Shown here: positions 1,896-55,694 of the stretch, piece after piece
Position numbering within the stretch: position 1 is the stretch's first letter
Layout of the letters: each line of letters begins with the position of its first letter
IMG/VR virus record: IMGVR_UViG_2579779105_000001
Origin: a virus
Lineage: Duplodnaviria > Heunggongvirae > Uroviricota > Caudoviricetes
Direction: 5' to 3' (one strand)
DNA: 64,000 nucleotides
Notes under the pieces: generated by a model
Told to the model about the DNA's origin: nothing
Databases searched by the model: none
Seen by the model: the letters and a program-made list of their open reading frames with translations, nothing else
Translations under genes and position numbers: made by a program

Positions 1896-2341
1896 TGGGT
1901 AACTTTGGGAATTATTTCATTTTTATCATGGCATTTGTTGCCATCATTGACCGTTTCATTTTTCGTCGCAAGAGTGTTGAGATTTTGAGTATTGGTGACG
2001 CTGTAGTGAAAGAATCCGCTATAGCATTTCCTGTTTCGCTACGTGTTAAGCGAAGCTGGGTCAGCAATGCTCAAATCGAATATTGGTTGCAAGACCTGAA
2101 AAATCCATCTGTGGTTATTTCAGGGAAAACGCGACCAGTTGACGCCTCAAAACGCGGTGAGAGAGAAGAGTATTTGCTCATCGATACGAAATATCTTGAG
2201 CCAACGAAGTGGGATCTGAAAGTCACATTGACTAACGGTAACTGCCGACTGAATCCGCTTTATCGCATTTTCCCTATCAATGACTGCATAGAGCGCCAGT
2301 TTACGATCGAAAAGCGTGAAGGAGACTGGGATGTCAAATAA
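1895..2341 (+). CDS. LydB-like protein (antiholin position)
   Basis: 148 aa; start overlaps upstream stop (TAATG); positional analogy to P1 lydB. Confidence 0.35.
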   Translation: MGNFGNYFIFIMAFVAIIDRFIFRRKSVEILSIGDAVVKESAIAFPVSLRVKRSWVSNAQIEYWLQDLKNPSVVISGKTRPVDASKRGEREEYLLIDTKYLEPTKWDLKVTLTNGNCRLNPLYRIFPINDCIERQFTIEKREGDWDVK

Positions 2342-2951
2342 GAATAATTATGTTCTTCTTAATTATGATGAGTTAAACGAAAAGGGGCTGGCAAAACTCG
2401 TCAAAGAAATCAGCAAAGGTGGTTACAAGATAGCGAGGGTGATCCCTGCAAGTAATGGCAGGAAGAAAGATGGGATCATGACGCGCACGTTTACCCTTAT
2501 TGGTCTTGATGAACAGACAATGGAAGTTCAGGTTAACGATACCGGTGATATATCTGGGATCAAACTGAATGGTAAAACAGTACCGTTCAAGCCAGTAAAA
2601 ACAATGTCGGCTTTGGGGCAATCTCTTGCGGCTTTATTTAATCGCGGAGCAACTTCTTTCCAGAAGTCATTAGCTCGAAAACTTGCTCGTGCAGCAAAAA
2701 ATATTGATGACGAAAATAAGAAGCGGCAGGGAGTTAAATCCAACGCTCAGAAATTAGCTGAAGCGAAAGAATCACGTGATGCACTCCGTGAAGATATCGC
2801 TAATGCTAACGACAAACTGTCTAAACTCCAGAGCAAGTCAGACAAAGTAATGCAAGATACGGGTAACGTTAAAGCTGCCTTGTCTCAGGAAGTAGCTAAG
2901 ACACGTGCTCTTAAAGAAGAAATCGCGCGCCTGGAGGATGAGCATGATTAA
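2331..2951 (+). CDS. coiled-coil protein, Hdf-like (Dar operon position)
   Basis: ATG at 2331 with GGAGA SD; Lys/Glu-rich coiled-coil C-terminus; directly precedes DarA-like gene. Confidence 0.3.
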   Translation: MSNKNNYVLLNYDELNEKGLAKLVKEISKGGYKIARVIPASNGRKKDGIMTRTFTLIGLDEQTMEVQVNDTGDISGIKLNGKTVPFKPVKTMSALGQSLAALFNRGATSFQKSLARKLARAAKNIDDENKKRQGVKSNAQKLAEAKESRDALREDIANANDKLSKLQSKSDKVMQDTGNVKAALSQEVAKTRALKEEIARLEDEHD

Positions 2952-4869
2952 CAATCCTTTACGAATTAATATTCAGTCTACTTTTGCTGATACGATCCCC
3001 GGCTATATGCCAGGTCGCTGGTCTTCAGAAGAATTAAGCGAAGATGACCTGATTTTTGAGGCGGCGACCTTAGAAGATATTGAGCTTGCCTATATGGGCA
3101 ATGAAATTCTGGTTGTGTCTGACGAAGCTATGTTTGAGTCCATAACTACAACCAGAATTCGGTTAGCTCAAACAATGCGAGCTTTCGTCCGTGCGCTGAA
3201 TCGTGGCCTGAATGGTACGAATATTATGGCAGGGACTGATGAAGCCGGGACCGATGAAAATGGACGTAATTGTATTGGTGGTGCGATTATCGGTCGTGTA
3301 CGTCGGGTAGCTAATATCCCTGTTTTGACCGCGCAGATACCGCTTACTGACGGGCAGAGTACAAGCATAATTTTCCACTCTCCAACAGCTGACGGGGCAA
3401 AAATAAAGAGTAACGACGAGCTTGTTGCATTTCAGTTTTTACTTAATAAGCGTAACGTAACTCACGTTGTCGCCCCGATTGGCGGGAGAGATGTTTCTTT
3501 AAGCCAGGTATGCCAGGCGCTATCTAATTTGATTGAGCGTAACAGCGAAAAATTTAAGAAAGCAAAAGAGCGCCAGGACAAAATGAAGGCAGATATTGAG
3601 AGTTATCTCAATGAAGCAGATAAACTGGCAGAAGAACGGTCAATAACAATTGATCAGGTGGACGTTGCGCAACGTGGGCTGACTGAAAAGCGTGCTGCTC
3701 TTACGGAGATGCAAAAAAAACTTGATGCCCAGAAAGCCATCAACGAGGAATTACAAGAAAAACGCGATAAATTGTTGTCTGCTAAAGGTGAAAAAACGAA
3801 GGAGCGAGCGTTTAGTGACCAGCTGCGACATGTAAAACATAATCTTGCCATTGACGGAAAAACAGTGCTGGATAATGGCGCTGAAGTTAATTATGTCACG
3901 TCCGGCAGTGACAATTTCGTTACGATAGTAGCACCTGAAGGTAAATTCAGTATTGATGCCAGTGCTGTCAAAGGAGGCAGTTTGGCAGATGCTGCAACCA
4001 AATTACTTAAAGCCTACCGAGAGCATAACGCAGATAAATATAAAGTTGATGTGTTACCAGGCCAGCAGGAAGACTCCGAACCACCACAGACAGCCCCCGA
4101 GACGAACCCAGTATCACAACCAGAGAGCCAAGATGTAGGTAAATACCACTATGCACTTCAATCTCGCCCGGCTGGTGTTGGTGCTGTGCCGGATGGGAAT
4201 AAAGCCGTGCTTGATCGTCCTGACCAGGCTGATCAGTATTACGGATATGCTCGTCACGGTATCATTACGTATGACCGTAAACTGACAGATGAAGAAGTCA
4301 GCCAGTACGAGTTGCTCTATCTTCCTGATGAAGATGAGCTGAAAGATTTTGCAGGCCAATTGGTTGTGTCCAGCATGTCTAAACATATTGATGGCTATGT
4401 GGACCTGTTTGGCAGTGACCTGAAAACATTCAAGGCGCAAGTGAAAATTCTTTTCCGCAAAGCGTTTCCAAACGTGGCGTATCCACTTGGTGATGGGGAG
4501 AACCTTTTCATTATGGACGTGTATAACGCCCTTCAAAATTATTCAAGCGAAGTAAAAACAGAGCATGTGGTTGAGCCAGAATCACAACCACAACCAGCAC
4601 CAGAACAGGAGCCGGAGCCAGAAGAAGCGGGTGAATCAGCAAGTGAAGCTGATCAGGAGGCAGATAAAGCGCTGGAGTACCTGAAATCCGTGCCGGAGCA
4701 GTTTACATCCCGCGATCTGACGGTCATCAGTACTGAACTTGATCATGTACAGGAAGCAGCAAATGCTCTAATCAGTGCAGGTCGATACGACGAGAACGAA
4801 GCCACTGTGGGTGCAGCAGTTGACTACCTGATCAACATTCTGGCTGAAATTCAGCAGGGAGGTGCTTAA
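2944..4869 (+). CDS. DarA-like virion antirestriction/head-morphogenesis protein
   Basis: 641 aa from ATG 2944 (P1 DarA is about 639 aa, recalled); overlaps upstream stop; acidic C-terminal segments; call is positional, no sequence-level confirmation. Confidence 0.4.
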   Translation: MINNPLRINIQSTFADTIPGYMPGRWSSEELSEDDLIFEAATLEDIELAYMGNEILVVSDEAMFESITTTRIRLAQTMRAFVRALNRGLNGTNIMAGTDEAGTDENGRNCIGGAIIGRVRRVANIPVLTAQIPLTDGQSTSIIFHSPTADGAKIKSNDELVAFQFLLNKRNVTHVVAPIGGRDVSLSQVCQALSNLIERNSEKFKKAKERQDKMKADIESYLNEADKLAEERSITIDQVDVAQRGLTEKRAALTEMQKKLDAQKAINEELQEKRDKLLSAKGEKTKERAFSDQLRHVKHNLAIDGKTVLDNGAEVNYVTSGSDNFVTIVAPEGKFSIDASAVKGGSLADAATKLLKAYREHNADKYKVDVLPGQQEDSEPPQTAPETNPVSQPESQDVGKYHYALQSRPAGVGAVPDGNKAVLDRPDQADQYYGYARHGIITYDRKLTDEEVSQYELLYLPDEDELKDFAGQLVVSSMSKHIDGYVDLFGSDLKTFKAQVKILFRKAFPNVAYPLGDGENLFIMDVYNALQNYSSEVKTEHVVEPESQPQPAPEQEPEPEEAGESASEADQEADKALEYLKSVPEQFTSRDLTVISTELDHVQEAANALISAGRYDENEATVGAAVDYLINILAEIQQGGA

Positions 4870-5237
4870 TGACCATCTCTGTTTTAGACCGCCTGAAATT
4901 AGGTAAAGAGCTATCAGATCTAATGCAGGCGCAGAAAACTGCGCCAGTATTGCAACGCGTCACCATTGGTAAGCAGATTGTTGATGTGATGCTGAAATTG
5001 GGCCTGGGGACTGCCGCGCAACCGGCAGCGGAACCGCAACAACAGACTGATCCTGTTGTAGATGAAGTCCCTAAGATAGTGACTGACTTCCTGGGCGGTG
5101 TGTTCACAAAGTCCACACAAATGGAATTTATTGATGCGCTGCGTGGGATCTCAAACTATGTTGGCGAGTTCCTTACGTTGGAGCAGGCTAAAGTACAGAC
5201 CATAAGCTGGGTGAAAGCCAACGGTTATGCCGGGTAA
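4869..5237 (+). CDS. small protein in DdrA position
   Basis: 122 aa; ATG overlaps DarA-like stop (TAATG). Confidence 0.3.
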   Translation: MTISVLDRLKLGKELSDLMQAQKTAPVLQRVTIGKQIVDVMLKLGLGTAAQPAAEPQQQTDPVVDEVPKIVTDFLGGVFTKSTQMEFIDALRGISNYVGEFLTLEQAKVQTISWVKANGYAG

Positions 5238-10639: not shown

Positions 10640-10693
10640 CCTGTGTGCCTACAAAACATCCCAATGATCGGCAAATGCTCGCTCGATGATTTG

Positions 10694-10724
10694 TATTAGA
10701 AAATTAATTTGCTGTTTCTAAATC
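10694..10724. promoter_or_regulatory. pair of operator-like motifs (TATTAGAAAAT / TGTTTCTAAATC)
   Basis: Variants of the recurrent motif at the head of the immI-like region. Confidence 0.35.
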
Positions 10725-10929
10725 GGAATGTATGATCTGCATCATCGACTGAAGTCATCCATTGCTGAAATTTTTAGTTGATCTTCCATGTTTTCAGGCT
10801 TATATTCATGCCGTCGTAGCAAATTCTGCGACCAGGTTTGACAGCCTGAATGTTAGTGCGGACAACCGCAGATTTCCGATATTGCGGTATTTTTGTGTCC
10901 GTAAACCGCGTTACGCCCGAATTATGGTG

Positions 10930-10995
10930 GGGCGTGATGGGGAGGCTTCGGCCTGCTGGTTTCACTAACGCCAGTCTGTCAACCCTGTCACGTCC
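10930..10995 (+). ncRNA. candidate c4-like antisense RNA
   Basis: GGCTTCGGCC tetraloop hairpin, then CACTAAC and CTGTCAA, complementary to GTTAGTG and TTGACAG found at 10838-10858 and again at 11006-11041 over the downstream SD; boundaries approximate. Confidence 0.3.
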
Positions 10996-11052
10996 TGCCA
11001 CCTGTTTGACAGCGGGTAGCAGGTTGTTAAACCTGTTAGTGAGGCCGTAACT

Positions 11053-11277
11053 ATGGTTAATGCCAATCCTTGCTCACGTCCAGAATTCATCTGGCGTTTC
11101 CACTCCCTGCAAAAACACTGCGATCACTTCGCAATTGCCGCAACCGAAAAAGAAGCCCGTTCTCTGATCCCTGATCAGCATGGTGTTCTTACTGGTCGTT
11201 TCTCTACTTCCCCACAACCAAACACTAATCCCTGGTATCGCAATATTACCAATCCCAGCATTGCGGAGGCACACTGA
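11053..11277 (+). CDS. small Icd-like protein
   Basis: 74 aa; GAGG SD overlaps the putative antisense target; a paralogous sequence lies near 46470-46640. Confidence 0.4.
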   Translation: MVNANPCSRPEFIWRFHSLQKHCDHFAIAATEKEARSLIPDQHGVLTGRFSTSPQPNTNPWYRNITNPSIAEAH

Positions 11278-11393
11278 TGGATATCTGCCTTCATGAATGC
11301 TTTTAACCGGATGATGTCGGAGGCTGAGCACCGAGGAAAACGCTGGTATCACCCCAAAATGGGGCAATTCCAGGTGATCGGTTGGGGAGGTGA

Positions 11394-11594
11394 GTGATGG
11401 ACATCATGCAGGCGGTAAAAAAAATCAGGGAAGAACAGGCTGAAGTGTGCCGCCGTAAAGCATGGAGTGTTGGTGTATGGGCCTGGCCTGATAATTACTC
11501 TACTACCGGATGGTTTTGTATTAATGGACTCCAGATCCGGGAAGTTGATTTATCGACGGCTGATATAGTCGGTAATGATTGGTTCGTGACTTGA
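11394..11594 (+). CDS. small hypothetical protein
   Basis: 66 aa; GGAGG SD; followed by a terminator. Confidence 0.35.
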   Translation: MMDIMQAVKKIREEQAEVCRRKAWSVGVWAWPDNYSTTGWFCINGLQIREVDLSTADIVGNDWFVT

Positions 11595-11602
11595 AGCGTG
11601 AT

Positions 11603-11628
11603 GCCCCGGCCTGGTCGGGGCTTTTTTC
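11603..11628. terminator. rho-independent terminator (GCCCCG...CGGGGC + TTTTTT)
   Basis: Hairpin with T-run on + strand and A-run on the other side; lies between convergent genes. Confidence 0.6.
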
Positions 11629-12112
11629 ATGCCTCATTAGTTGAGGTTGCTGCGTCTCCGACTGGTAACAGAGCGGTATTGCGTGGTTCGCCAGCAGGCC
11701 AGCGATAGCCAGACACTCTTGATGTTGGGAATGCGCGAATATTAACCGCATCCCCCTGGTTCCCACCCAGGACAAGCAGATCGCCATTGGCGCGGCGTCC
11801 GACAACGAAGCCTACGTGCCCACCGCCTACGCGGGTAAATACAACGATACATCCGTATGCCGGTGTATCTAATTTCTCGCCCCAATCCAGATAGGATTTT
11901 GCCGACTCAAATCTTGTTGAGCGGATGCCTACACGTTCCAGCATTGCACCGACAAATGCTGCGCACCACGGCGTTTCATCGTCTTTAATTCCGCCGCGCT
12001 TGATGTCGCGCCAAAACTGAACGATTTCAGGGTTGTGTTTAGCGCCTTTTATTTCAGTCAGGCCAATGTGCTTACGTGCTTCAATTAGCCAGCGAGGTTC
12101 AATGTTTGCCAT
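11627..12112 (-). CDS. TIGR02594-family putative peptidoglycan hydrolase (NlpC/P60-CHAP-like)
   Basis: 161 aa; conserved core WCAAFVGAML...GGHVGFVVG typical of the phage-associated TIGR02594 family (recalled). Confidence 0.55.
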   Translation of the reverse strand: MANIEPRWLIEARKHIGLTEIKGAKHNPEIVQFWRDIKRGGIKDDETPWCAAFVGAMLERVGIRSTRFESAKSYLDWGEKLDTPAYGCIVVFTRVGGGHVGFVVGRRANGDLLVLGGNQGDAVNIRAFPTSRVSGYRWPAGEPRNTALLPVGDAATSTNEA

Positions 12113-12186: not shown

Positions 12187-15100
12187 GTGAAAATAACATT
12201 CTCCATACCCTCTCAACCGTACCGCATAGCGGATTTTTTACGGTTTAGAGGGGGTAATCCTTTGGATAAACTACTTCATTCAATCAGTGAAGCTTCCAGC
12301 TTAGGCGAACTGATTGAAATTGTTAGTCGGTTGCATAAATTACGTGCTGTTGCGACCTTTGGCGTTAAGAAAGTCGATGGTGTCAGCATTCAAAAAACAC
12401 GGCGGGCAGCAAACAACGCCGCAGTAGAGCTTCTTAATTCCCTTCCGCCCGGCTTCGATGGGGCGAAATTAACTGACGAACAGCGTCAGATTCTTGCCGG
12501 GTATACCGGTGAAGGCGGCCTGACAGATGGTGAGGGCAGCCAATACGAATACTACACGCCACAGTTTATGGCTGAAGGTATATGGGATCTGTTTGCTGAC
12601 TACGGTATTGATGGCGGGCACGTACTGGAACCATCAGCGGGCACAGGTATTTTCCAGGAGACAAAACGACAGGGCATGATAATGACCAGCGCCGAACTGT
12701 CTCCGATTTCCGGTCGAATAAACCAGCTTTTGCACCCGGAAGACGATGTGAATATCGGGGCGTTTGAGGCGCTGGCGGCGAAAGACGCAATGTATGATCA
12801 CGCTGTTGGTAACGTACCGTTTGGTGAAGGGCGTTCCGGTGTCGCCGGGCTTGATCCGGCATATGCAAACGAGAAGAACGTTGGCAATTACTTTGTGCTG
12901 CGCACGATCGACAAGGTTAAGCCTGGTGGGCTTATCGTATTGGTGGTGCCGAATGGCATGACCGATGGTACGAAATATAAAAAATTGCGCGATAAAGTCA
13001 GCCGTAAAGCGGAATTTTTGGGCGCACATCGTATGCCTTCCGGTACGTTCAGCGAATCCGGTACAGATACCGTGGTGGACGTATGGGTATTGCGTAAACA
13101 CCCGGAAACCTTCCTGGAGATGATCCCCGACACGGATGATTCAACACTCAAATCGGCAAACGTCCTTTGGGATACCTTCCTCAAAGGAAAATGGTTTACA
13201 ACCGAAGGGAAGCGATTTGTTTACGGCGACATGGAACGTACCAGCTTCCGCAATACCCTGGTGGTGAAAAAGGACGGTCGTGTATCCAATGAGTCGATGA
13301 AAACCGCGCTATCTCGTCGCTTTGATAGTCGCATCAATTGGGATTTGCTCGGCGTAACTACTCAGGCATGGCAGGGCGCGAAAGTGGGCGATAAACGCCT
13401 AGTAGGCGGCATCTGGCATGAGTTTGATGGCCTGAAATGGGTCAAGGACACGACAACCAAATCCTCCGCGCTTGATGTAAGTCGATATGGTGTTTCGACA
13501 TTCGGTGATCTGCAAACAACGTTCCAATCAACAAACGGCATTCTGGCTCTGTCATGGGGGCAGATATCCGCGATCGCTTCCGACTATCCATCGGTTATCA
13601 GTGATGAAGTAGCGGCAATGATTCGCTTTGCTGGGAAACAACGCGAAAAAGACCGTGAGCGCATTATGCGCGGTGCGCTGATCGGGCAACTTATCAATAA
13701 AGCGCTGGATAAGCGTAACCTTGGTGAAAACGTCGATGATGAACTGGCTGATGCCGCACGTCTGACGGCTGCCGAAGTTGCTAAATATGGCCCACCACAC
13801 GCCATTAAGCTAAACGACATTACCGAAGCGGGCGCGAAGAACTGGCTGACATTCACCGGGAACGTCAATCAGGACGGTGAAGCATCCGATCTGCTGTCCG
13901 GACGGCTTGATGTTAGCAAAGGGGCTGCTGGTATTGATTTCACTCGTCCGGAACAGGTTGTGACACACCTTTTCAGCGATGTTGCCCTTAATCCTATCAA
14001 TCTTGATGACTTCCGCGAGGCGTTTAAAGGCGAACTGCCAGAAGACGACGATCAAGCACTGGAATACCTGGCGAAATTCGACGATATCGCTATTGATGGA
14101 TATGGTTGCCTGCTACCGATGGGCCGTGCCACTAGCGGTGATATTAAATCAAAAGTGGCACTGCTGGTGGGCTGGCGAGACGCGTCCACAGGAGAGCGGA
14201 AGGCCAACTTTGAGCGCCAGCTTTCAAAAATCGAAGAGAAACGCACGTTTACACCGCTGAACAAAGTCACGGTAAACCTTAACGCACGGTGGTTGGATCG
14301 CCGCCTGATAAAAGAGTTCCTGGCAGAGCAGGGCTATGACGAGTTTAAGTATACAGAACCCGACCTTAAGGTTGAGAACGGCATTCTGGTATCCCCGGAC
14401 GATTACGAAGGTAAGGACGGGGTATTTACTGGCTACCAGCTACGAACCGTAAACGGCAAAAACGGGAACGAGTTCAAGAAAGCGAATAACAAAGATGGCT
14501 TCCTGAATCAGCTTGAGAACTACCTGAACGGTGTTAAACCGCGCGGACAGAACGCTAACGAGTACCTGGACAAAATCGCCCAGCTTGAGACGAGTTTTAA
14601 CGACTGGTTAAGAACTCACCCGCAGGCAGACCAGATCGCCCGCGATTATAACGACGCCTTTAACGGTTATATTCCATTTACCCATTCAGACGCACCCCTG
14701 GGGCTTGAAGGCATCAGCGGGAAACGTATACCGCTTTCTTACCAGAACGAAGAAGTTCGTCGTCTGTCGGAAGATGGGCGCGGGATTATGGGATTCGGAA
14801 CTGGTTTGGGTAAAACGACGACCGCGCTGGCACTGGAAGCCTATAACTTTGAAACCGGGCGAACCAAACGTACCTGTATCGTTGTTCCAAAGGCCGTATA
14901 CCAGAACTGGTATCACGAGGCACAGAGCTTCTACAGTGCAGATGCCTTCGCCAATATGATGTTTATCGGTCTGGACGAAGTGCGCGATGGTGACGGAAAT
15001 ATTCAGACTGCCCCAGTGCTCGACCAGGACGGCACCCCGCGACTTGATAACGACGGCAATCCGATCACCCGTAATGTTGTTAAAGAATCCGCCAGTGCCG

Positions 15101-17778
15101 TTATCGCTCAACGCATGAACATGATCCCATCGTCGAACTGGCGAACGGTCATCATGACAAAAGAGCAGTTCGCATCTATCCCGTTGCGCGATGAAACCAT
15201 CGGAGAAAACTCACAGCAGGCTGTCTTTAATGCCGCCGAAATGGGGCGTCTTGACCTGGCGTCAGGCAAGCACCGTGATGCGCAGAAGAAGAACAAGATT
15301 AAGGACCAGGCCGCGAATACCGGTACAGCGAAGAAGCAGAATATCCCGTACTTTGAGGATATGAACTTCGATAGCGTAATTGCCGACGAAGGGCACAACT
15401 ACCGCAACTCCTTTGGTGCCGGGCGTGAAGCGGGGCAACTGGCATATTTACCTAATCCGGCGGTATCCAAAATGGCCCGTGACATGGCTGTAAAAGCTGC
15501 GTACATGATGAAACGTCACAATGGGCGCGGCGTCGTAATGCTGACAGCAACTCCGCTGGTTAATAGCCCTATTGACGCCTTCAACATGCTGTCAACGGTG
15601 ATCCCTCAGCACGAGTGGATGCACATGGGGATTATTACCCCTGACGACTTTGTCCGAGTGTTCGGTAAAACAGCCACTGTTCAGGTCCAGAAAATTTCTG
15701 GCGAAGTGGAAGAGAAACAGGGGCTGGTGGGCTTCCAGAACCTTGATGGTCTGCGTGGCATTTTCCACCGCTGGACAACGCTTAAAACGGCTTCCGATGT
15801 TGGTGCAACGGTAAAAATCCCGGATATCGTCGAAAACACCTTGCAGATCCCAATGACTCCAGAGCAGCAAGCAGCTTATGAAGAGCTTCGTAAACGCGCG
15901 CAGGAGTTAAGTCGTGGTGATGACGTCACTGTCGATGATGAAGGCAATATCACTCGCGGGAAACCGGATGATTTCATTTTCTCTATCATTCGCGACATGG
16001 ATAAGGTCGCTATCGACCCGGATCTTTACGCCAGCGCTATCACATTCCAGTTCCCTGTAGAACTTACTGAACAGGTGAAGTCTATAGCTAATAACCTACC
16101 AAAAGTGGCTGGTGGGAAAGCGGCAGACGATGCAGAAGAAGCAGAGGAGGATGCGACCGGAGGCCTGGTCAGTACCCGTACCAGCAAGGTTGTAGCTACA
16201 ACATTTAGTGAGCATCCAAATCACGTCGAATTGCGTGCCAGCATTGACCTGGAGGCTGAAATACTCAAGGCAATTGCTGATGCAGGCATCGACATGAAAC
16301 AGGTGTCACACCCGATCCCGCCTAAGTATGCCGCACTTATCGAGAACCTTCGTGAAGGGCTTAAGAACGGTAAGCAAATTATCTTTATCGACGAGAAAGC
16401 CCAGCACCAGAAACTACGTCGCATCATTGCCAGTGCGTTGCAAATGCCAGAGCAGGAGATAGGCATTATCAATGCTACGACTGTTAGCCAGGCTGGTGGT
16501 GTTAAGCTGAAAAAGGTCAAAAAACCGACCGAACCGACGCCAAACAAAGACGGTGAATACAAAGAAGGCGCATGGGAAACCTACTACAGTAAACTGGCCC
16601 AATATGAGGATTATCTCTCTGCTAAAAATGATGCTGGCCTTGAGGGGATGGAAGGTATTGCTGCCGACTATAACGAAGGGCGCACGCAAATCATTATCTG
16701 TAACAAGAAAGCCGAAGTAGGTATCAACCTGCATATTGGAACGACCGATATTCACCACCTGACACTACCCTGGACTCCTGCCAGTATCGACCAACGAAAT
16801 GGGCGCGGTGCGCGCGTAGGTTCTCCGCAAGAGAAGGTTAATGTTCACTATTATTGTGGCAAAGGCACATTCGATGACTTCCGTCTGGATACGCTTAAAC
16901 GTAAGAAAGACTGGATCAAGATGGTGATGACCTCCGATATGTCAGAGATCGCCAATGGTGATGCGGATGACGCTGATGAACGCGCCATTATGCTGGCGGC
17001 AAATCCGGAAGAACGACGCGCAATTATGGCTCGTCAGTCGAAAGAACGTGAGGAACGCCTGCGACTTAAAGCGCAACGCGAAGCCAATAATGCTCTCGAT
17101 AACTACCTGAAAGCGGCGAATGCTGCCGGGAAGGATATCGGCATGATGGAGGCAGAACTGAAAAGCGCGATGGAGCAGGCGCAACGATACCAGAGTGATC
17201 TGGATGGACTGATTAAGAGCGGCATCAACAAAAACGGACAGAAATATACGCTTTCAGCACTAAGCAAAGCTAAAAAAAGAGTGCGTGAATTGCGATTTGC
17301 AATCACCAGGGCGAAGGACGCGGATACTGTTATGAAACGCTCTCGTGGTGATGTGGAGCGTGCTATTAAGTCTGGTGTGCTGGATATCAGTATCGATGTT
17401 ATTCAGAACCCGCAGGAGTATATGCGCACTGGCAAGAACATCCTGTTGCATAAAGGTAGTTACTACCGTGCAGTCATTGATGCTGAATACGAGACAACGG
17501 CGATTGTACGCGTGACACAAATTGAGGGCGAAAAAGCGCAATACACCTGCCGCGTCGCCTGGCTGGATAGAGCAAGTCGCAACTCTCGTTCTCCTGGCTC
17601 AACCATGACATTACCGTTTGACTCAGTGGTTGAAGCGGTAACATTTGAAGAGGGGGTGGCTGAATCACGAGAAATAGCGGCACGTGGTGTTCAAAGCCAC
17701 CAGCTTTCAACCTCTCTTTCTCGCGATCAATTCTATGACGCTATTCGTAGCGGTGTTATGCGGGTAACCGCACGCTGA
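12187..17778 (+). CDS. darB: DarB-like large polyvalent protein: N6-adenine methyltransferase + SF2 helicase
   Basis: 1863 aa; MTase motifs EPSAGTG and NVPFG; helicase Walker A GFGTGLGKTT and DEGH box; start (GTG 12187) uncertain. Confidence 0.7.
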   Translation: MKITFSIPSQPYRIADFLRFRGGNPLDKLLHSISEASSLGELIEIVSRLHKLRAVATFGVKKVDGVSIQKTRRAANNAAVELLNSLPPGFDGAKLTDEQRQILAGYTGEGGLTDGEGSQYEYYTPQFMAEGIWDLFADYGIDGGHVLEPSAGTGIFQETKRQGMIMTSAELSPISGRINQLLHPEDDVNIGAFEALAAKDAMYDHAVGNVPFGEGRSGVAGLDPAYANEKNVGNYFVLRTIDKVKPGGLIVLVVPNGMTDGTKYKKLRDKVSRKAEFLGAHRMPSGTFSESGTDTVVDVWVLRKHPETFLEMIPDTDDSTLKSANVLWDTFLKGKWFTTEGKRFVYGDMERTSFRNTLVVKKDGRVSNESMKTALSRRFDSRINWDLLGVTTQAWQGAKVGDKRLVGGIWHEFDGLKWVKDTTTKSSALDVSRYGVSTFGDLQTTFQSTNGILALSWGQISAIASDYPSVISDEVAAMIRFAGKQREKDRERIMRGALIGQLINKALDKRNLGENVDDELADAARLTAAEVAKYGPPHAIKLNDITEAGAKNWLTFTGNVNQDGEASDLLSGRLDVSKGAAGIDFTRPEQVVTHLFSDVALNPINLDDFREAFKGELPEDDDQALEYLAKFDDIAIDGYGCLLPMGRATSGDIKSKVALLVGWRDASTGERKANFERQLSKIEEKRTFTPLNKVTVNLNARWLDRRLIKEFLAEQGYDEFKYTEPDLKVENGILVSPDDYEGKDGVFTGYQLRTVNGKNGNEFKKANNKDGFLNQLENYLNGVKPRGQNANEYLDKIAQLETSFNDWLRTHPQADQIARDYNDAFNGYIPFTHSDAPLGLEGISGKRIPLSYQNEEVRRLSEDGRGIMGFGTGLGKTTTALALEAYNFETGRTKRTCIVVPKAVYQNWYHEAQSFYSADAFANMMFIGLDEVRDGDGNIQTAPVLDQDGTPRLDNDGNPITRNVVKESASAVIAQRMNMIPSSNWRTVIMTKEQFASIPLRDETIGENSQQAVFNAAEMGRLDLASGKHRDAQKKNKIKDQAANTGTAKKQNIPYFEDMNFDSVIADEGHNYRNSFGAGREAGQLAYLPNPAVSKMARDMAVKAAYMMKRHNGRGVVMLTATPLVNSPIDAFNMLSTVIPQHEWMHMGIITPDDFVRVFGKTATVQVQKISGEVEEKQGLVGFQNLDGLRGIFHRWTTLKTASDVGATVKIPDIVENTLQIPMTPEQQAAYEELRKRAQELSRGDDVTVDDEGNITRGKPDDFIFSIIRDMDKVAIDPDLYASAITFQFPVELTEQVKSIANNLPKVAGGKAADDAEEAEEDATGGLVSTRTSKVVATTFSEHPNHVELRASIDLEAEILKAIADAGIDMKQVSHPIPPKYAALIENLREGLKNGKQIIFIDEKAQHQKLRRIIASALQMPEQEIGIINATTVSQAGGVKLKKVKKPTEPTPNKDGEYKEGAWETYYSKLAQYEDYLSAKNDAGLEGMEGIAADYNEGRTQIIICNKKAEVGINLHIGTTDIHHLTLPWTPASIDQRNGRGARVGSPQEKVNVHYYCGKGTFDDFRLDTLKRKKDWIKMVMTSDMSEIANGDADDADERAIMLAANPEERRAIMARQSKEREERLRLKAQREANNALDNYLKAANAAGKDIGMMEAELKSAMEQAQRYQSDLDGLIKSGINKNGQKYTLSALSKAKKRVRELRFAITRAKDADTVMKRSRGDVERAIKSGVLDISIDVIQNPQEYMRTGKNILLHKGSYYRAVIDAEYETTAIVRVTQIEGEKAQYTCRVAWLDRASRNSRSPGSTMTLPFDSVVEAVTFEEGVAESREIAARGVQSHQLSTSLSRDQFYDAIRSGVMRVTAR

Positions 17779-45021: not shown

Positions 45022-45189
45022 AAGTTGATGAGAGCAAAGAGTTCAATGCCCAGCTCAAACAACGCCAGGACAGTGAAAAACAGGACATATAGCAACCCAA
45101 TTTCTGTATCGGATTGCTGGTGGATTGCACTAATTGCGACAAGCATCATGACCTCCTGATATAGCGTCTGAAAAAAGTATCTTCATTTT

Positions 45190-45222
45190 GTGTTAGAAAA
45201 TCAATTTTGATTTTCTAACATG
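45190..45222. promoter_or_regulatory. palindromic double operator TGTTAGAAAATCAA-TT-TTGATTTTCTAACA
   Basis: Perfect 14-bp inverted repeat made of the recurrent motif, between the divergent ref-like gene and the leftward accessory cluster. Confidence 0.6.
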
Positions 45223-45265: not shown

Positions 45266-45841
45266 ATGAAGCAAAGCTATTGGGAGAAACAGACACAAAA
45301 AGCCCTGCAAAAACTGGCTGATCCGAAATGGCGGGAGGAACAAAGGGCAAAGCGTCTTCAGCAAGCTCAACGCCAGCAGCAGCGTGCGCGAGAAAAAGCC
45401 GCATCGCCTGAATATCGGCAAAAGAAAATTGAAAAAGCGAAGCAATATGAACAGCGAAGAAAAGAGAAGGCCGCTTCTGCTCCTGTCAAAAAAACTCGCG
45501 CGTCACGCGGCCTGAAAGGCAGAACACTCACAGCAGATGAGCGCCGGATACAAACTGCCATCGGTGCTCTCCCCTGCATTGCCTGCCATATGCACGGACA
45601 GCATAGCCCTGTGGTATCCCTGCACCACATCTTCGGAAGAACAGCAGAGAACGCGCATAAATACGTCCTCCCTTTGTGTAAATGGCACCATCAACACGCA
45701 GCGCCAGCAGAGATCCGCGAGCAATACCCCTGGTTGGTTCCTGTTCATGCTGATGGAAAAATAGGCGGTAAAGCAGATTTCAGGCGGCACAATGCTGATG
45801 AAATGACGTTGTATCAGATGGCGATTGAATTGACGAATTAG
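45266..45841 (+). CDS. ref: Ref-like RecA-dependent HNH nuclease
   Basis: Basic low-complexity N-terminus then a Cys/His HNH-like core (CIACHMHGQH ... LCKWHH); operator upstream as for P1 ref (recalled); track start at 45224 is TTG. Confidence 0.55.
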   Translation: MKQSYWEKQTQKALQKLADPKWREEQRAKRLQQAQRQQQRAREKAASPEYRQKKIEKAKQYEQRRKEKAASAPVKKTRASRGLKGRTLTADERRIQTAIGALPCIACHMHGQHSPVVSLHHIFGRTAENAHKYVLPLCKWHHQHAAPAEIREQYPWLVPVHADGKIGGKADFRRHNADEMTLYQMAIELTN

Positions 45842-45852
45842 TTTTCTAACAT
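45839..45852 (+). promoter_or_regulatory. operator TAGTTTTCTAACAT
   Basis: Exact 14-mer overlapping the ref-like stop. Confidence 0.5.
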
Positions 45853-46173
45853 TTTAAGTTGAATTATAAATTTCTCCGATGTACATTCACTACCGATTGG
45901 CACACCGGTCAACTTTTTGAGACAAACTGTATAGTTTTTCGTATTATTGCCGCCGCCATACCTATGGCGGTGCAATATAGGTGGCTGAAAAGCCCCCGTT
46001 GACTCACGGTGTTCCAGCCTTTATTGCGCCGCCACCAGACCGTGGAACAGTCGATGGCGGCTCCGAAAGCAAGGAGTCACTACACTATGAACAGCTACTG
46101 TCTTTTCCCGTCACTCGTTGTCCGCCACTCACGCGATAATCTGCATTCTTTACTCGCGCTGGGGGTGTCAAAA

Positions 46174-46340
46174 TGACCGTTCGCTACCTCAACTTTCAAA
46201 TCCAGAACATCACTGGCGGTTGCTATGACTGGTTTGTCACTCTCGGAAAAGAAGTGATCACCGGGAAGCTGGATGAAGTGAAAGCTAAAGCAATGGCCTA
46301 CGCCTGCAAGCAAGCCCGGAAGAAATCCGCCAAAGCATAA
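46174..46340 (+). CDS. small hypothetical protein (55 aa)
   Basis: ATG with GGGGG upstream; below the ORF-track cutoff; read manually. Confidence 0.3.
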
Positions 46341-46727
46341 AATACTGACTTTTGCGCCCTGGCATTATCGTGGGGTATATTTCTACGGCACCTTAGAAAA
46401 ACGGGTGCCGGGATTGGAACCTCACGCGGTAGCTCCTTAACTTAGTCAAAGGAGGCTGCCAATATCGCTACTATCCCCACCCCAACTCATTCTGAATTTA
46501 TCTGGCGTTTCTATTCCTGCCAAAAACACCTGTATATCTGCGTCATGGCTGCAACCGAAGCAGAAGCTCGTTCATACCTTCCCCTGGCGGAACGGGGCGT
46601 AATTGGTGATAAACAGATACTGGGAAACAGTGGAACTACATGAGGCGGGAGTAATTCGTGACCTGATGGAGAATTCCGTTCCCCGCCGCTATCGTGCAGG
46701 GAACGGCATCTCCGTGGTTAAAGGTGT

Positions 46728-55635: not shown

Positions 55636-55650
55636 AAAATGCACCCATTT

Positions 55651-55682
55651 GTGTTAGATAATTAACGCGTATTTTCTAACAT
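55651..55682. promoter_or_regulatory. pair of operator-like motifs (GTGTTAGATAA ... GTATTTTCTAACATAAA)
   Basis: Inverted pair of the recurrent motif directly upstream of hrdC. Confidence 0.5.
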
Positions 55683-55694
55683 AAATGGTGAGAA

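Follow-up and report, generated by a model that had tools for sequence, protein, structure and literature searches.

Features of the locus

The locus described here lies in a 64,000-nucleotide stretch of viral DNA, which was analysed as a whole and is referred to below as the window. Its features are collected in Table 1. On the + strand, a promoter is followed by a leader with a first pair of target boxes, a C4 antisense RNA, a second pair of boxes, an icd gene, the wreck of an antirepressor gene (ant), the small gene orf17 and a terminator. A hydrolase gene on the opposite strand converges on this operon.

Table 1. Features of the immI locus and its borders, in window coordinates
Feature	Position	Strand	Basis and remarks
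Operator-like 17-mer TGTATTAGAAAATTAAT	10692..10708	+	Repeated motif; upstream of the immI promoter
Sigma-70 promoter TTGATC-17-TATATT, homologue of P1c4 (formerly P51b)	10778..10806	+	Promoter scan
Leader with the first target copy	10800..10858	+	Rfam RF03163, c4-a1b1
a1 box TTGACAG and b1 box GTTAGTG	10838-10844, 10852-10858	+	First target copy; a1 lies in a hairpin loop
Terminator-like hairpin CCGCAG...GCGG with U-run	10866..10894	+	Between b1 and c4; invariant in P1, P7 and D6
C4 antisense RNA, 77 nt	10926..11002	+	Rfam RF01695; annotated P1 c4 misc_RNA
Second target copy: a2 TTGACAG, b2 GTTAGTG, Shine-Dalgarno GAGG	11006-11012, 11035-11041, 11041-11044	+	Box positions; P1 annotation
icd, 74-aa Icd-like inhibitor of host cell division	11053..11277	+	NCBIfam NF033153
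Wreck of a D6-type ant	11277..11397	+	Alignment to D6 and pF374-2
orf17, last operon gene, 65 aa from ATG 11397 (66 aa from GTG 11394)	11397..11594	+	D6 orf17 homologue
Intrinsic terminator, 8-bp GC-rich stem and T-run	11603..11630	+	Terminator scan; closes the operon
CHAP-domain hydrolase gene, convergent with the operon	11627-12112	-	CHAP domain

The C4 antisense RNA and its two target copies

The first-pass annotation of this DNA had proposed an immI-like locus in which a c4-type antisense RNA with duplicated a/b targets controls an icd-like gene, in the arrangement of phage P1 c4, and had suggested a covariance-model search as a check. That search was run with the Rfam models. The C4 model (RF01695) matched 10920-11005 over model positions 1-87 of 87; it reached 68.8 bits, where the gathering score is 45, with E-values of 2.8e-11 over the whole window and 1.4e-13 in a local search. 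The c4-a1b1 model (RF03163) matched 10800-10852 with 54.4 bits against 46.7. With both models above their gathering scores, the proposal was supported.

The likeness to P1 was also borne out base by base. The RNA was identical to the annotated P1 c4 at 77 of 77 positions, and the segment 10793-11164 showed 93% DNA identity to the immI region of phage P1 (Megablast). When the annotation of P1 (GenBank NC_005856) was transferred to the window (window coordinate = locus L003 coordinate + 7792), a1, b1, c4, a2, b2, the icd start and the P1c4 promoter corresponded one-to-one with features of the window. The P1 record labels the bases equivalent to the first copy 'putative a1/b1 target site for C4 RNA' and those equivalent to the second 'target site a2/b2 ... 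repression of icd ant translation'.

The predicted structure of the C4 RNA is closed by a stem of 17 bp and contains two hairpins, of which hairpin I has a UUCG loop (10944-10953, GGCTTCGGCC). In this predicted fold, the b' sequence CACTAAC (10963-10969) belongs to hairpin II and is unpaired within its 9-nt loop, while the a' sequence CTGTCAA (10976-10982) forms a 7-nt unpaired stretch adjoining hairpin II. The minimum free energy was -42 kcal/mol (z = -4.55), and the centroid structure was the same as the minimum-free-energy structure. Because C4 and the bases flanking it show sequence identity to P1, the operon transcript here is likely processed to a mature RNA of about 77 nt. Hartmann et al. 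are said to have reported RNase P processing of P1 C4 from the operon transcript in 1995.

The short elements were each found where the first-pass annotation had put them: TTGACAG at 10838 and 11006, GTTAGTG at 10852 and 11035, the tetraloop hairpin at 10944, CACTAAC at 10963 and CTGTCAA at 10976. It had also stated that the second copy overlaps the GAGG Shine-Dalgarno of the 74-aa ORF, and this was confirmed, as the last base of b2 (11041) is the first base of GAGG. The overlap thus falls at the icd ribosome-binding site, with GAGG 8 nt ahead of the icd ATG at 11053.

Since each box is only 7 nt long, the complementarity might be a coincidence, and the region a plain untranslated icd leader without an antisense regulator; apart from the shortness of the boxes, there is no other support for this reading. 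Several results speak against it. The pattern TTGACAG-N(5-30)-GTTAGTG occurred exactly three times on both strands of the window, namely in the two target copies and as the reverse complement within c4, whereas 0.00 occurrences were expected from 100 dinucleotide-preserving shuffles. In addition, two Rfam covariance models exceeded their gathering thresholds, and the C4 of P1, which has been characterised by experiment, has exactly the same sequence as this RNA. Together with the covariation described below, the Rfam scores and the P1 identity refute a coincidental match, whose probability we consider practically nil.

Covariation of the boxes across related loci

The invariant hairpin core of C4 retrieved about 120 loci from IMG/VR, and the pairing count was restricted to the 101 related loci in which all six boxes were readable. 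The variation of the boxes among these loci served as a natural compensatory-mutation test. Six b-types (CACTAAC, CACAATC, CGTAAGT, CATTCGT, CATGTAC and CACAAGT) and two a-types (CTGTCAA and CTGCTAA) were found, and 10 of the 12 possible combinations were seen. The b' sequence was exactly complementary to both b1 and b2, and the a' sequence to both a1 and a2, in 101 of 101 loci, which are phylogenetically non-independent. This perfect three-way covariation speaks against chance pairing. Each b-type needs a concerted change at three sites.

The cognate loop-box duplexes had energies of -11.7 kcal/mol (b) and -9.2 kcal/mol (a). The C4 of the window paired far more weakly with the b boxes of D6 or P7 (-0.9 to -4.9 kcal/mol). 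Full-length RNAduplex calculations of C4 against the target leaders were set aside in favour of these loop-versus-box values, because they ignore intramolecular structure and their energies were uninformative.

The box combination of the window is that of P1, and its predicted immI specificity is therefore P1-type. D6 differs in b (b' CGTAAGT, with ACTTACG at b1 and b2), which predicts heteroimmunity to the window at immI. P7, whose immI has the same architecture as the window, differs in both a and b: its C4 departs from that of the window at 5 of 77 positions, with a' CTGCTAA and b' CACAATC and matching changes in a1, a2, b1 and b2. Such a/b box differences are the classical basis of P1/P7 heteroimmunity.

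The promoter and an operator-like motif

The promoter at 10778-10806 coincides exactly with the -35 and -10 elements annotated for P1c4 in P1, as determined by coordinate transfer. The sequence upstream of it is unrelated to that of P1; where P1 has the C1 operator Oc4/Op51, the window has a different 17-mer (10692-10708). This 17-mer belongs to a motif family, TGTRTTAGAAAAYYAAT, with nine copies in the window at two or fewer mismatches against 0.09 expected, for a motif that was defined post hoc. An identical copy of TGTATTAGAAAATTAAT lies at 23420-23436 on the - strand, and a further family member (27854-27870) lies directly upstream of a C1 homologue.

The C1 homologue (345 aa; 26803-27840, - strand) lies behind the pac genes, in synteny with P1. 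It is distant, with 20% identity to P1 C1 over 242 aa (pairwise E = 4e-8). Judging from its recurrence, the 17-mer upstream of the immI promoter is a candidate site for this diverged C1-type repressor of the element. P1-type operators were discarded as the control sites of this immI copy, because the P1 C1-operator consensus ATTGCTCTAATAAATTT had no match at three or fewer mismatches in the whole window. The missing P1 operator is consistent with the strong divergence of the C1 homologue. The operator-like motifs mentioned in the first-pass annotation are thus real in the sense of a recurrent 17-mer (nine copies against 0.09), but they do not correspond to the P1 C1-operator consensus.

The host element and the genes of the operon

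The best matches to the whole locus were pF374-2 (98.8%) and phage D6 (96.7%), ahead of P1, and the window is colinear with pF374-2. By these matches, the host element is a D6-like, P1-related phage-plasmid. D6 (NC_050154; orf19 icd - orf18 ant - orf17) and the D6-like plasmid prophages pF374-2 and pYU39_89 (PMC6799933) share the backbone and gene order of the window, in which repL, immI, the CHAP hydrolase gene and a darB-like gene follow one another. They also share its icd type, orf17 type and operator-like motif. The neighbours in P1 differ, as the window has repL upstream of immI and no kilA-repL downstream. The operon c4-icd-ant-orf17, with an Ant of 235 aa, was present in D6 and in 108 D6-like plasmids. 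In D6 and pF374-2, the stop and start codons of icd (74 aa), ant (235 aa) and orf17 (65 aa) overlap.

The 74-aa ORF, which had been called icd-like from the letters, was confirmed by its match to the NCBIfam model NF033153 (phage_ICD_like; 40.4 bits against a cutoff of 25). It also matched phrog_1426, and a tblastn search of the window with P1 Icd gave 61% identity over 61 aa. The gene is chimeric: its 5' part is P1-like (93% DNA identity until about 11164) and its 3' part is D6-type, so that the 3' half differs from that of P1 icd. The D6 and pF374-2 counterparts are annotated as Icd-like.

The first-pass annotation had noted that only a 35-aa and a 66-aa ORF follow icd and that a large antirepressor gene is absent. 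Both statements hold. The first ORF (34 aa, 11293-11397) is the in-frame C-terminus of Ant, and the second (65 or 66 aa, from 11397 or 11394 to 11594) is D6 orf17. Only Ant residues 198-235 were detected in the window by tblastn. A Pfam search of the 34-aa remnant gave 0 matches. The intact Ant of pF374-2 carries the Pfam domain Phage_pRha (PF09669) at residues 11-98 and matches phrog_63 ('anti-repressor Ant'); this domain has been deleted from the ant of the window. The D6-type Ant (235 aa, Rha-family) is unrelated to Ant1/2 of P1. The effector of P1 is thus Ant1/Ant2, whereas the ancestral effector in the lineage of the window is a 235-aa Rha/Roi-type antirepressor, which is now deleted.

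The last gene, orf17, encodes a conserved small protein with homologues in D6 (orf17) and pF374-2 (WP_001344836) and matches phrog_7385 (function unknown). It had no match in Pfam even at E = 10 and 0 matches among PDB sequences. A single-sequence AlphaFold model of the protein (pLDDT 67.5) gave no Foldseek match in the PDB with an E-value below 0.4. A resemblance to DUF2829-type proteins was not significant (BLASTP E = 2.2) and was rejected. The gene retains its own GGAGG Shine-Dalgarno; being uncoupled from ant, it may escape C4 control.

A 587-bp deletion has destroyed ant

In the alignment with D6 and pF374-2, 587 bp of ant are absent from the window (positions 2189-2775 of the pF374-2 locus, L002), with the deletion junction at 11282-11287. 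Of the 708-bp gene, which D6 and the 108 PLSDB relatives keep, the window retains 121 bp. The loss shifts the reading frame, as 587 cannot be divided by three, and reduces ant to a stub of nine codons, from ATG 11277 to TAA 11304-11306 (MDICLHECF-stop). The breakpoints lie inside an imperfect direct repeat with 13 of 16 positions matching (TATCTGCATTCTTGAA / TATCTCCCTTCATGAA). We also searched the window by tblastn with P1 Ant1, KilA, Coi and the D6-type Ant, and no substitute antirepressor was detected besides the Ant remnant; this search covered the 64-kb window, and about 28 kb of the element, where a second antirepressor could sit, lies outside it.

The position of the breakpoints in a direct repeat could point to an artefact of sequencing or assembly, in which the two short repeats collapsed while the true molecule is intact. 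The same concern could be raised by the database searches, as the junction was found in none of the 108 D6-like PLSDB plasmids, none of the 95 complete E. coli genomes carrying the region, none of the GTDB species representatives and nowhere in IMG/VR. However, an imperfect repeat of 16 nt is too short for assembly collapse, and an exact-protein look-up of the orf17 allele of the window, which retrieved 22 contigs, showed that the junction recurs. Among these contigs, the identical junction was present in nine of the nine places listed, representing at least nine independent assemblies: one NCBI isolate assembly (GCA_009824745.1), six Logan assemblies of separate, unrelated runs and two ENA metagenomes. 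One Logan contig (SRR1186771) was identical to the window at 5198 of 5198 positions. Other junction-carrying contigs differed from the window at 4 to 57 positions in the flanks, which also argues against an artefact. Because the same junction occurs in independent assemblies, the allele is genuine and circulating, though rare, and an artefact is extremely improbable. Within the locus, the variants differed only at one base of the C4 tetraloop and two bases of icd. A look-up with the 1863-aa DarB-like protein retrieved nothing, and the CHAP protein, with over 11,000 blocks listed for it, is too widespread to be of use here.

Loss of ant also occurs outside this lineage. The gene was intact in D6, pF374-2, all 108 D6-like PLSDB plasmids and 84 of the 90 complete loci surveyed, and truncated or missing in the other six. 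A separate deletion of 834 bp removes ant, together with part of orf17, in another D6-like contig (L025). In P1-like plasmids, immI has been noted as a region where modifications concentrate (PMC6906374).

The first-pass annotation had suggested that the controlled output may differ from that of P1. This stands insofar as this operon encodes no intact antirepressor, but the cause is a frameshifting deletion and not a different designed output. As judged from the alignments, the ant-less output is a lesion of the immI operon and not a new design.

We also considered whether the ant-less state is not decay but a selected cassette for immunity only, consisting of C4 with Icd and Orf17. Such a cassette would still silence phages of P1 specificity, while the plasmid-prophage itself would no longer be derepressed by an antirepressor. 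The spread of the allele could be read in this way: it occurs in at least nine independent assemblies whose backgrounds are up to 46 substitutions apart in the flanking 5 kb, and C4, the four target boxes, icd and orf17 are intact throughout, with one tetraloop base changed in two assemblies. The independent ant deletion in L025 and the 6 of 90 complete loci with a truncated or missing ant point in the same direction. The structure of the deletion points in the other, as an out-of-frame deletion between short imperfect repeats is typical of accidental slippage or illegitimate recombination. The lineage is also rare (22 contigs, against a CHAP protein found in more than 11,000 blocks), ant is kept in 108 of 108 PLSDB relatives, and there is no common retained design, since the L025 deletion takes part of orf17. 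Moreover, the conservation of the remainder may simply reflect a young allele. On balance, we find it quite unlikely that the ant-less state is a selected cassette, and equally so that it combines continued silencing of P1-specificity phages with freedom from antirepressor-driven derepression. That the allele is a stably transmitted selected state, in which the prophage is refractory to antirepressor-driven induction while C4 control of Icd and Orf17 is kept, is a doubtful proposition. If it were true, an ant-less immI devoted to immunity would represent one stage of domestication, in which a phage-plasmid moves closer to being a plasmid.

Our preferred reading, which we hold to be very probable, is an immI operon belonging to a D6-like phage-plasmid, in which C4 is the same as that of P1 and ant has been destroyed by the 587-bp deletion. 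The anatomy of the locus, its family, the identity to P1 C4, the covarying complementarity, the deletion and its spread were all established in the present analysis. In all tested respects save the effector, the operon belongs to the P1/P7/D6 immI family; it is defective by deletion and not of a new kind.

A model of immI control in the ant-less lineage

The immI operon of P1 (c4 - icd - ant1/ant2) resembles that of the window in C4, in a1/b1/a2/b2, in the P1c4 promoter and in the icd start. Both share the operon logic in which C4 is made from the transcript that it represses. Summaries of the P1 mechanism are given by PMC8201110 and PMC6906374, and the primary studies (Citron & Schuster 1990; Riedel et al. 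1993; Heisig et al. 1989) are taken here as relayed by PMC8201110. RNA processing, translational repression, downstream polarity and trans-immunity in the model below are inferred from this P1 literature.

The constitutive sigma-70 promoter (10778-10806), probably controlled by the C1-type repressor, would transcribe the whole operon, so that the transcript would carry a1/b1, C4, a2/b2, icd, the remains of ant, orf17 and the terminator (11603-11630), in that order. As established for P1, the 77-nt C4 would be cut from its own operon transcript. Its b' loop and a' single strand would then base-pair with the b2 and a2 boxes of further transcript molecules and occlude the icd ribosome-binding site. 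The block of icd translation would in turn silence the translationally coupled genes downstream. Rho-dependent polarity is a feature of the P1 immI operon.

In intact D6-like elements, the effector under C4 control would be the 235-aa Rha-family antirepressor. Since ant is destroyed in the lineage of the window, C4 can gate only icd and orf17 there. Given that this C4 has the sequence of P1 C4, it should still silence the immI of a superinfecting phage in trans, with P1 specificity only; trans-silencing should not be expected against phages of P7 or D6 specificity.

The importance of the locus is limited, as this is a textbook antisense-RNA immunity system whose RNA is the same as the characterised C4 of P1. 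The system is already known, and only the ant-less allele, with its spread, is new. A D6-like immI with c4, icd and an antirepressor has already been noted (PMC6799933). A reading of the letters alone had nevertheless recognised the C4 immunity system correctly. The C4/target module is 93% identical across the P1 and D6 lineages, although their C1 proteins share about 20% identity and their antirepressors are unrelated; C4 therefore appears as a portable RNA switch, which can gate different effectors. The circulating ant-deleted lineage is a natural experiment on the role of the antirepressor in the maintenance and induction of phage-plasmids.

A further likeness concerns the leader. The full model of IsrK, an Hfq-binding sRNA of the Salmonella Gifsy-1 prophage (RF01394), aligned to the a1/b1 leader and the hairpin behind it (10813-10894). 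At 43.5 bits, this match falls short of the gathering threshold (50), and we treated the segment as related and did not file it as IsrK. IsrK activates the translation of an antiterminator operon in trans (PMC4825925). In its predicted layout, a1/b1 followed by a terminator-like hairpin, the leader resembles this short sRNA.

Combinatorial C4 recognition specificities

We compared the boxes of the window (10838-11041) with those of the c4 regions of IMG/VR loci L005-L124. The C4 specificities were combinatorial: at least six b-types and two a-types were distinguished, and 10 of the 12 combinations occurred. They were spread over antirepressor backbones of the P1, 'MRTSL' and D6/Rha types. Because the boxes are interleaved in the DNA (a1 b1 ... 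b' a' ... a2 b2), the re-assortment of a- and b-types would take several crossovers, or else concerted triple changes that happened more than once. A single locus, L045 (IMGVR_UViG_2565956613_000015), broke the pairing rule, combining b' CATTCGT and b1 ACGAATG with a b2 of the P1 type, GTTAGTG; its a2 box was unreadable with the anchor used. L045 may have arisen by recombination, and its icd/ant would then be free of control by its own C4 at the b site.

Mosaicism of icd and loss of ant

The icd gene (11053-11277) is itself a mosaic: it closely matches P1 as far as about 11164 (residue ~37) and less well beyond, and the C-terminus of Icd, which is of the D6 type, overlaps the start of the D6-type ant. 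The point at which the shared RNA-switch module was joined by recombination to the lineage-specific effector therefore falls within icd.

Loss or truncation of ant was also seen in other loci. L025 (IMGVR_UViG_2529292985_000014), another D6-like element, carries an independent 834-bp deletion (2178-3011 of the pF374-2 locus L002) that takes the whole of ant and extends into the 5' part of orf17, and P1-type ant genes are truncated in L032, L044 and L047. In the window, orf17 (11397-11594; phrog_7385) is conserved, and in intact relatives it is translationally coupled to ant. The termini of its product resemble those of the element's DUF2829 protein (RRxxW ... DxxxxDWFV), a match that was not significant (E = 2.2).

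Leader segment and operator-like motifs

The a1/b1 leader segment (10813-10894), which does not vary in sequence among P1, P7 and D6, aligns with the entire IsrK sRNA model at 43.5 bits, under the gathering score of 50. Its 3' part is a terminator-like hairpin with a U-run, and a short a1/b1 RNA with its end at this point could serve as a decoy for C4 or as its competitor.

The 17-mer family TGTRTTAGAAAAYYAAT has nine sites in the window at two mismatches or fewer. Some of them form overlapping inverted pairs, for example at 45187-45207 and 55648-55686. On the strength of this recurrence, the 17-mers are probably operators of the D6-type C1 repressor. Their core, TCTAATA, also occurs in the P1 operator consensus, and the remainder differs.

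Features of the operator-like, leader, second C4-type and tRNA regions of the window
Feature	Position	Strand	Remark
17-mer sites	10692, 18504, 23420, 27854, 29267, 40286, 45189, 45837, 55650		
Terminator-like hairpin and U-run	10866-10894		3' part of a1/b1 leader segment
Operator-like motifs	45189-45205 and 45837-45853		near second module
Imperfect a1/b1-like copies	45899 and 45918		upstream in second module
TGGAACA	46044		second module; complement of UGUUCCA
GAGTCA	about 46075		complement of UGACUC; overlaps AAGGAG SD of 29-aa ORF
29-aa ORF	46087-46176		second module; overlaps 55-aa ORF
55-aa ORF	46173-46340		second module
Three tRNA genes	19738-19888 and 21907-21979	+	Rfam tRNA, 64.7-74.9 bits

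A second C4-type module

Another C4-type module, divergent from the first, was observed at 45837-46640. In a 3-kb search, 45960-46039 matched the Rfam C4 model at 40.2 bits (E = 1.6e-5), under the gathering score of 45. The RNA has a C4-like fold (-36.2 kcal/mol, z = -5.15) with a loop, UGACUC, and a single strand, UGUUCCA, and the complements of both are located downstream. Farther downstream, an Icd-like frame at about 46464-46640 (NF033153, 35.1 bits) appears from its sequence to lack an ATG. About 180 bp of pF374-2, a D6-like plasmid prophage, are absent here, its 'ash' gene among them. A second c4/icd region has been mentioned for pYU39_89, also a D6-like plasmid prophage (PMC6799933).

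DarB-like gene and tRNA genes

The DarB-like SNF2/helicase-methylase ORF (12187-17778) encodes 1863 aa, whereas its counterparts in D6, pF374-2 and the sister contigs sharing the ant deletion encode 2278-2280 aa. About 3.8 kb of pF374-2 (record 89284-93095), comprising the 3' end of the DarB-like gene and five small genes, is absent from the window, and the DarB-like region is only 88% identical to that of pF374-2. The window also carries three tRNA genes, which are expected in P1/D6-like phage-plasmids.
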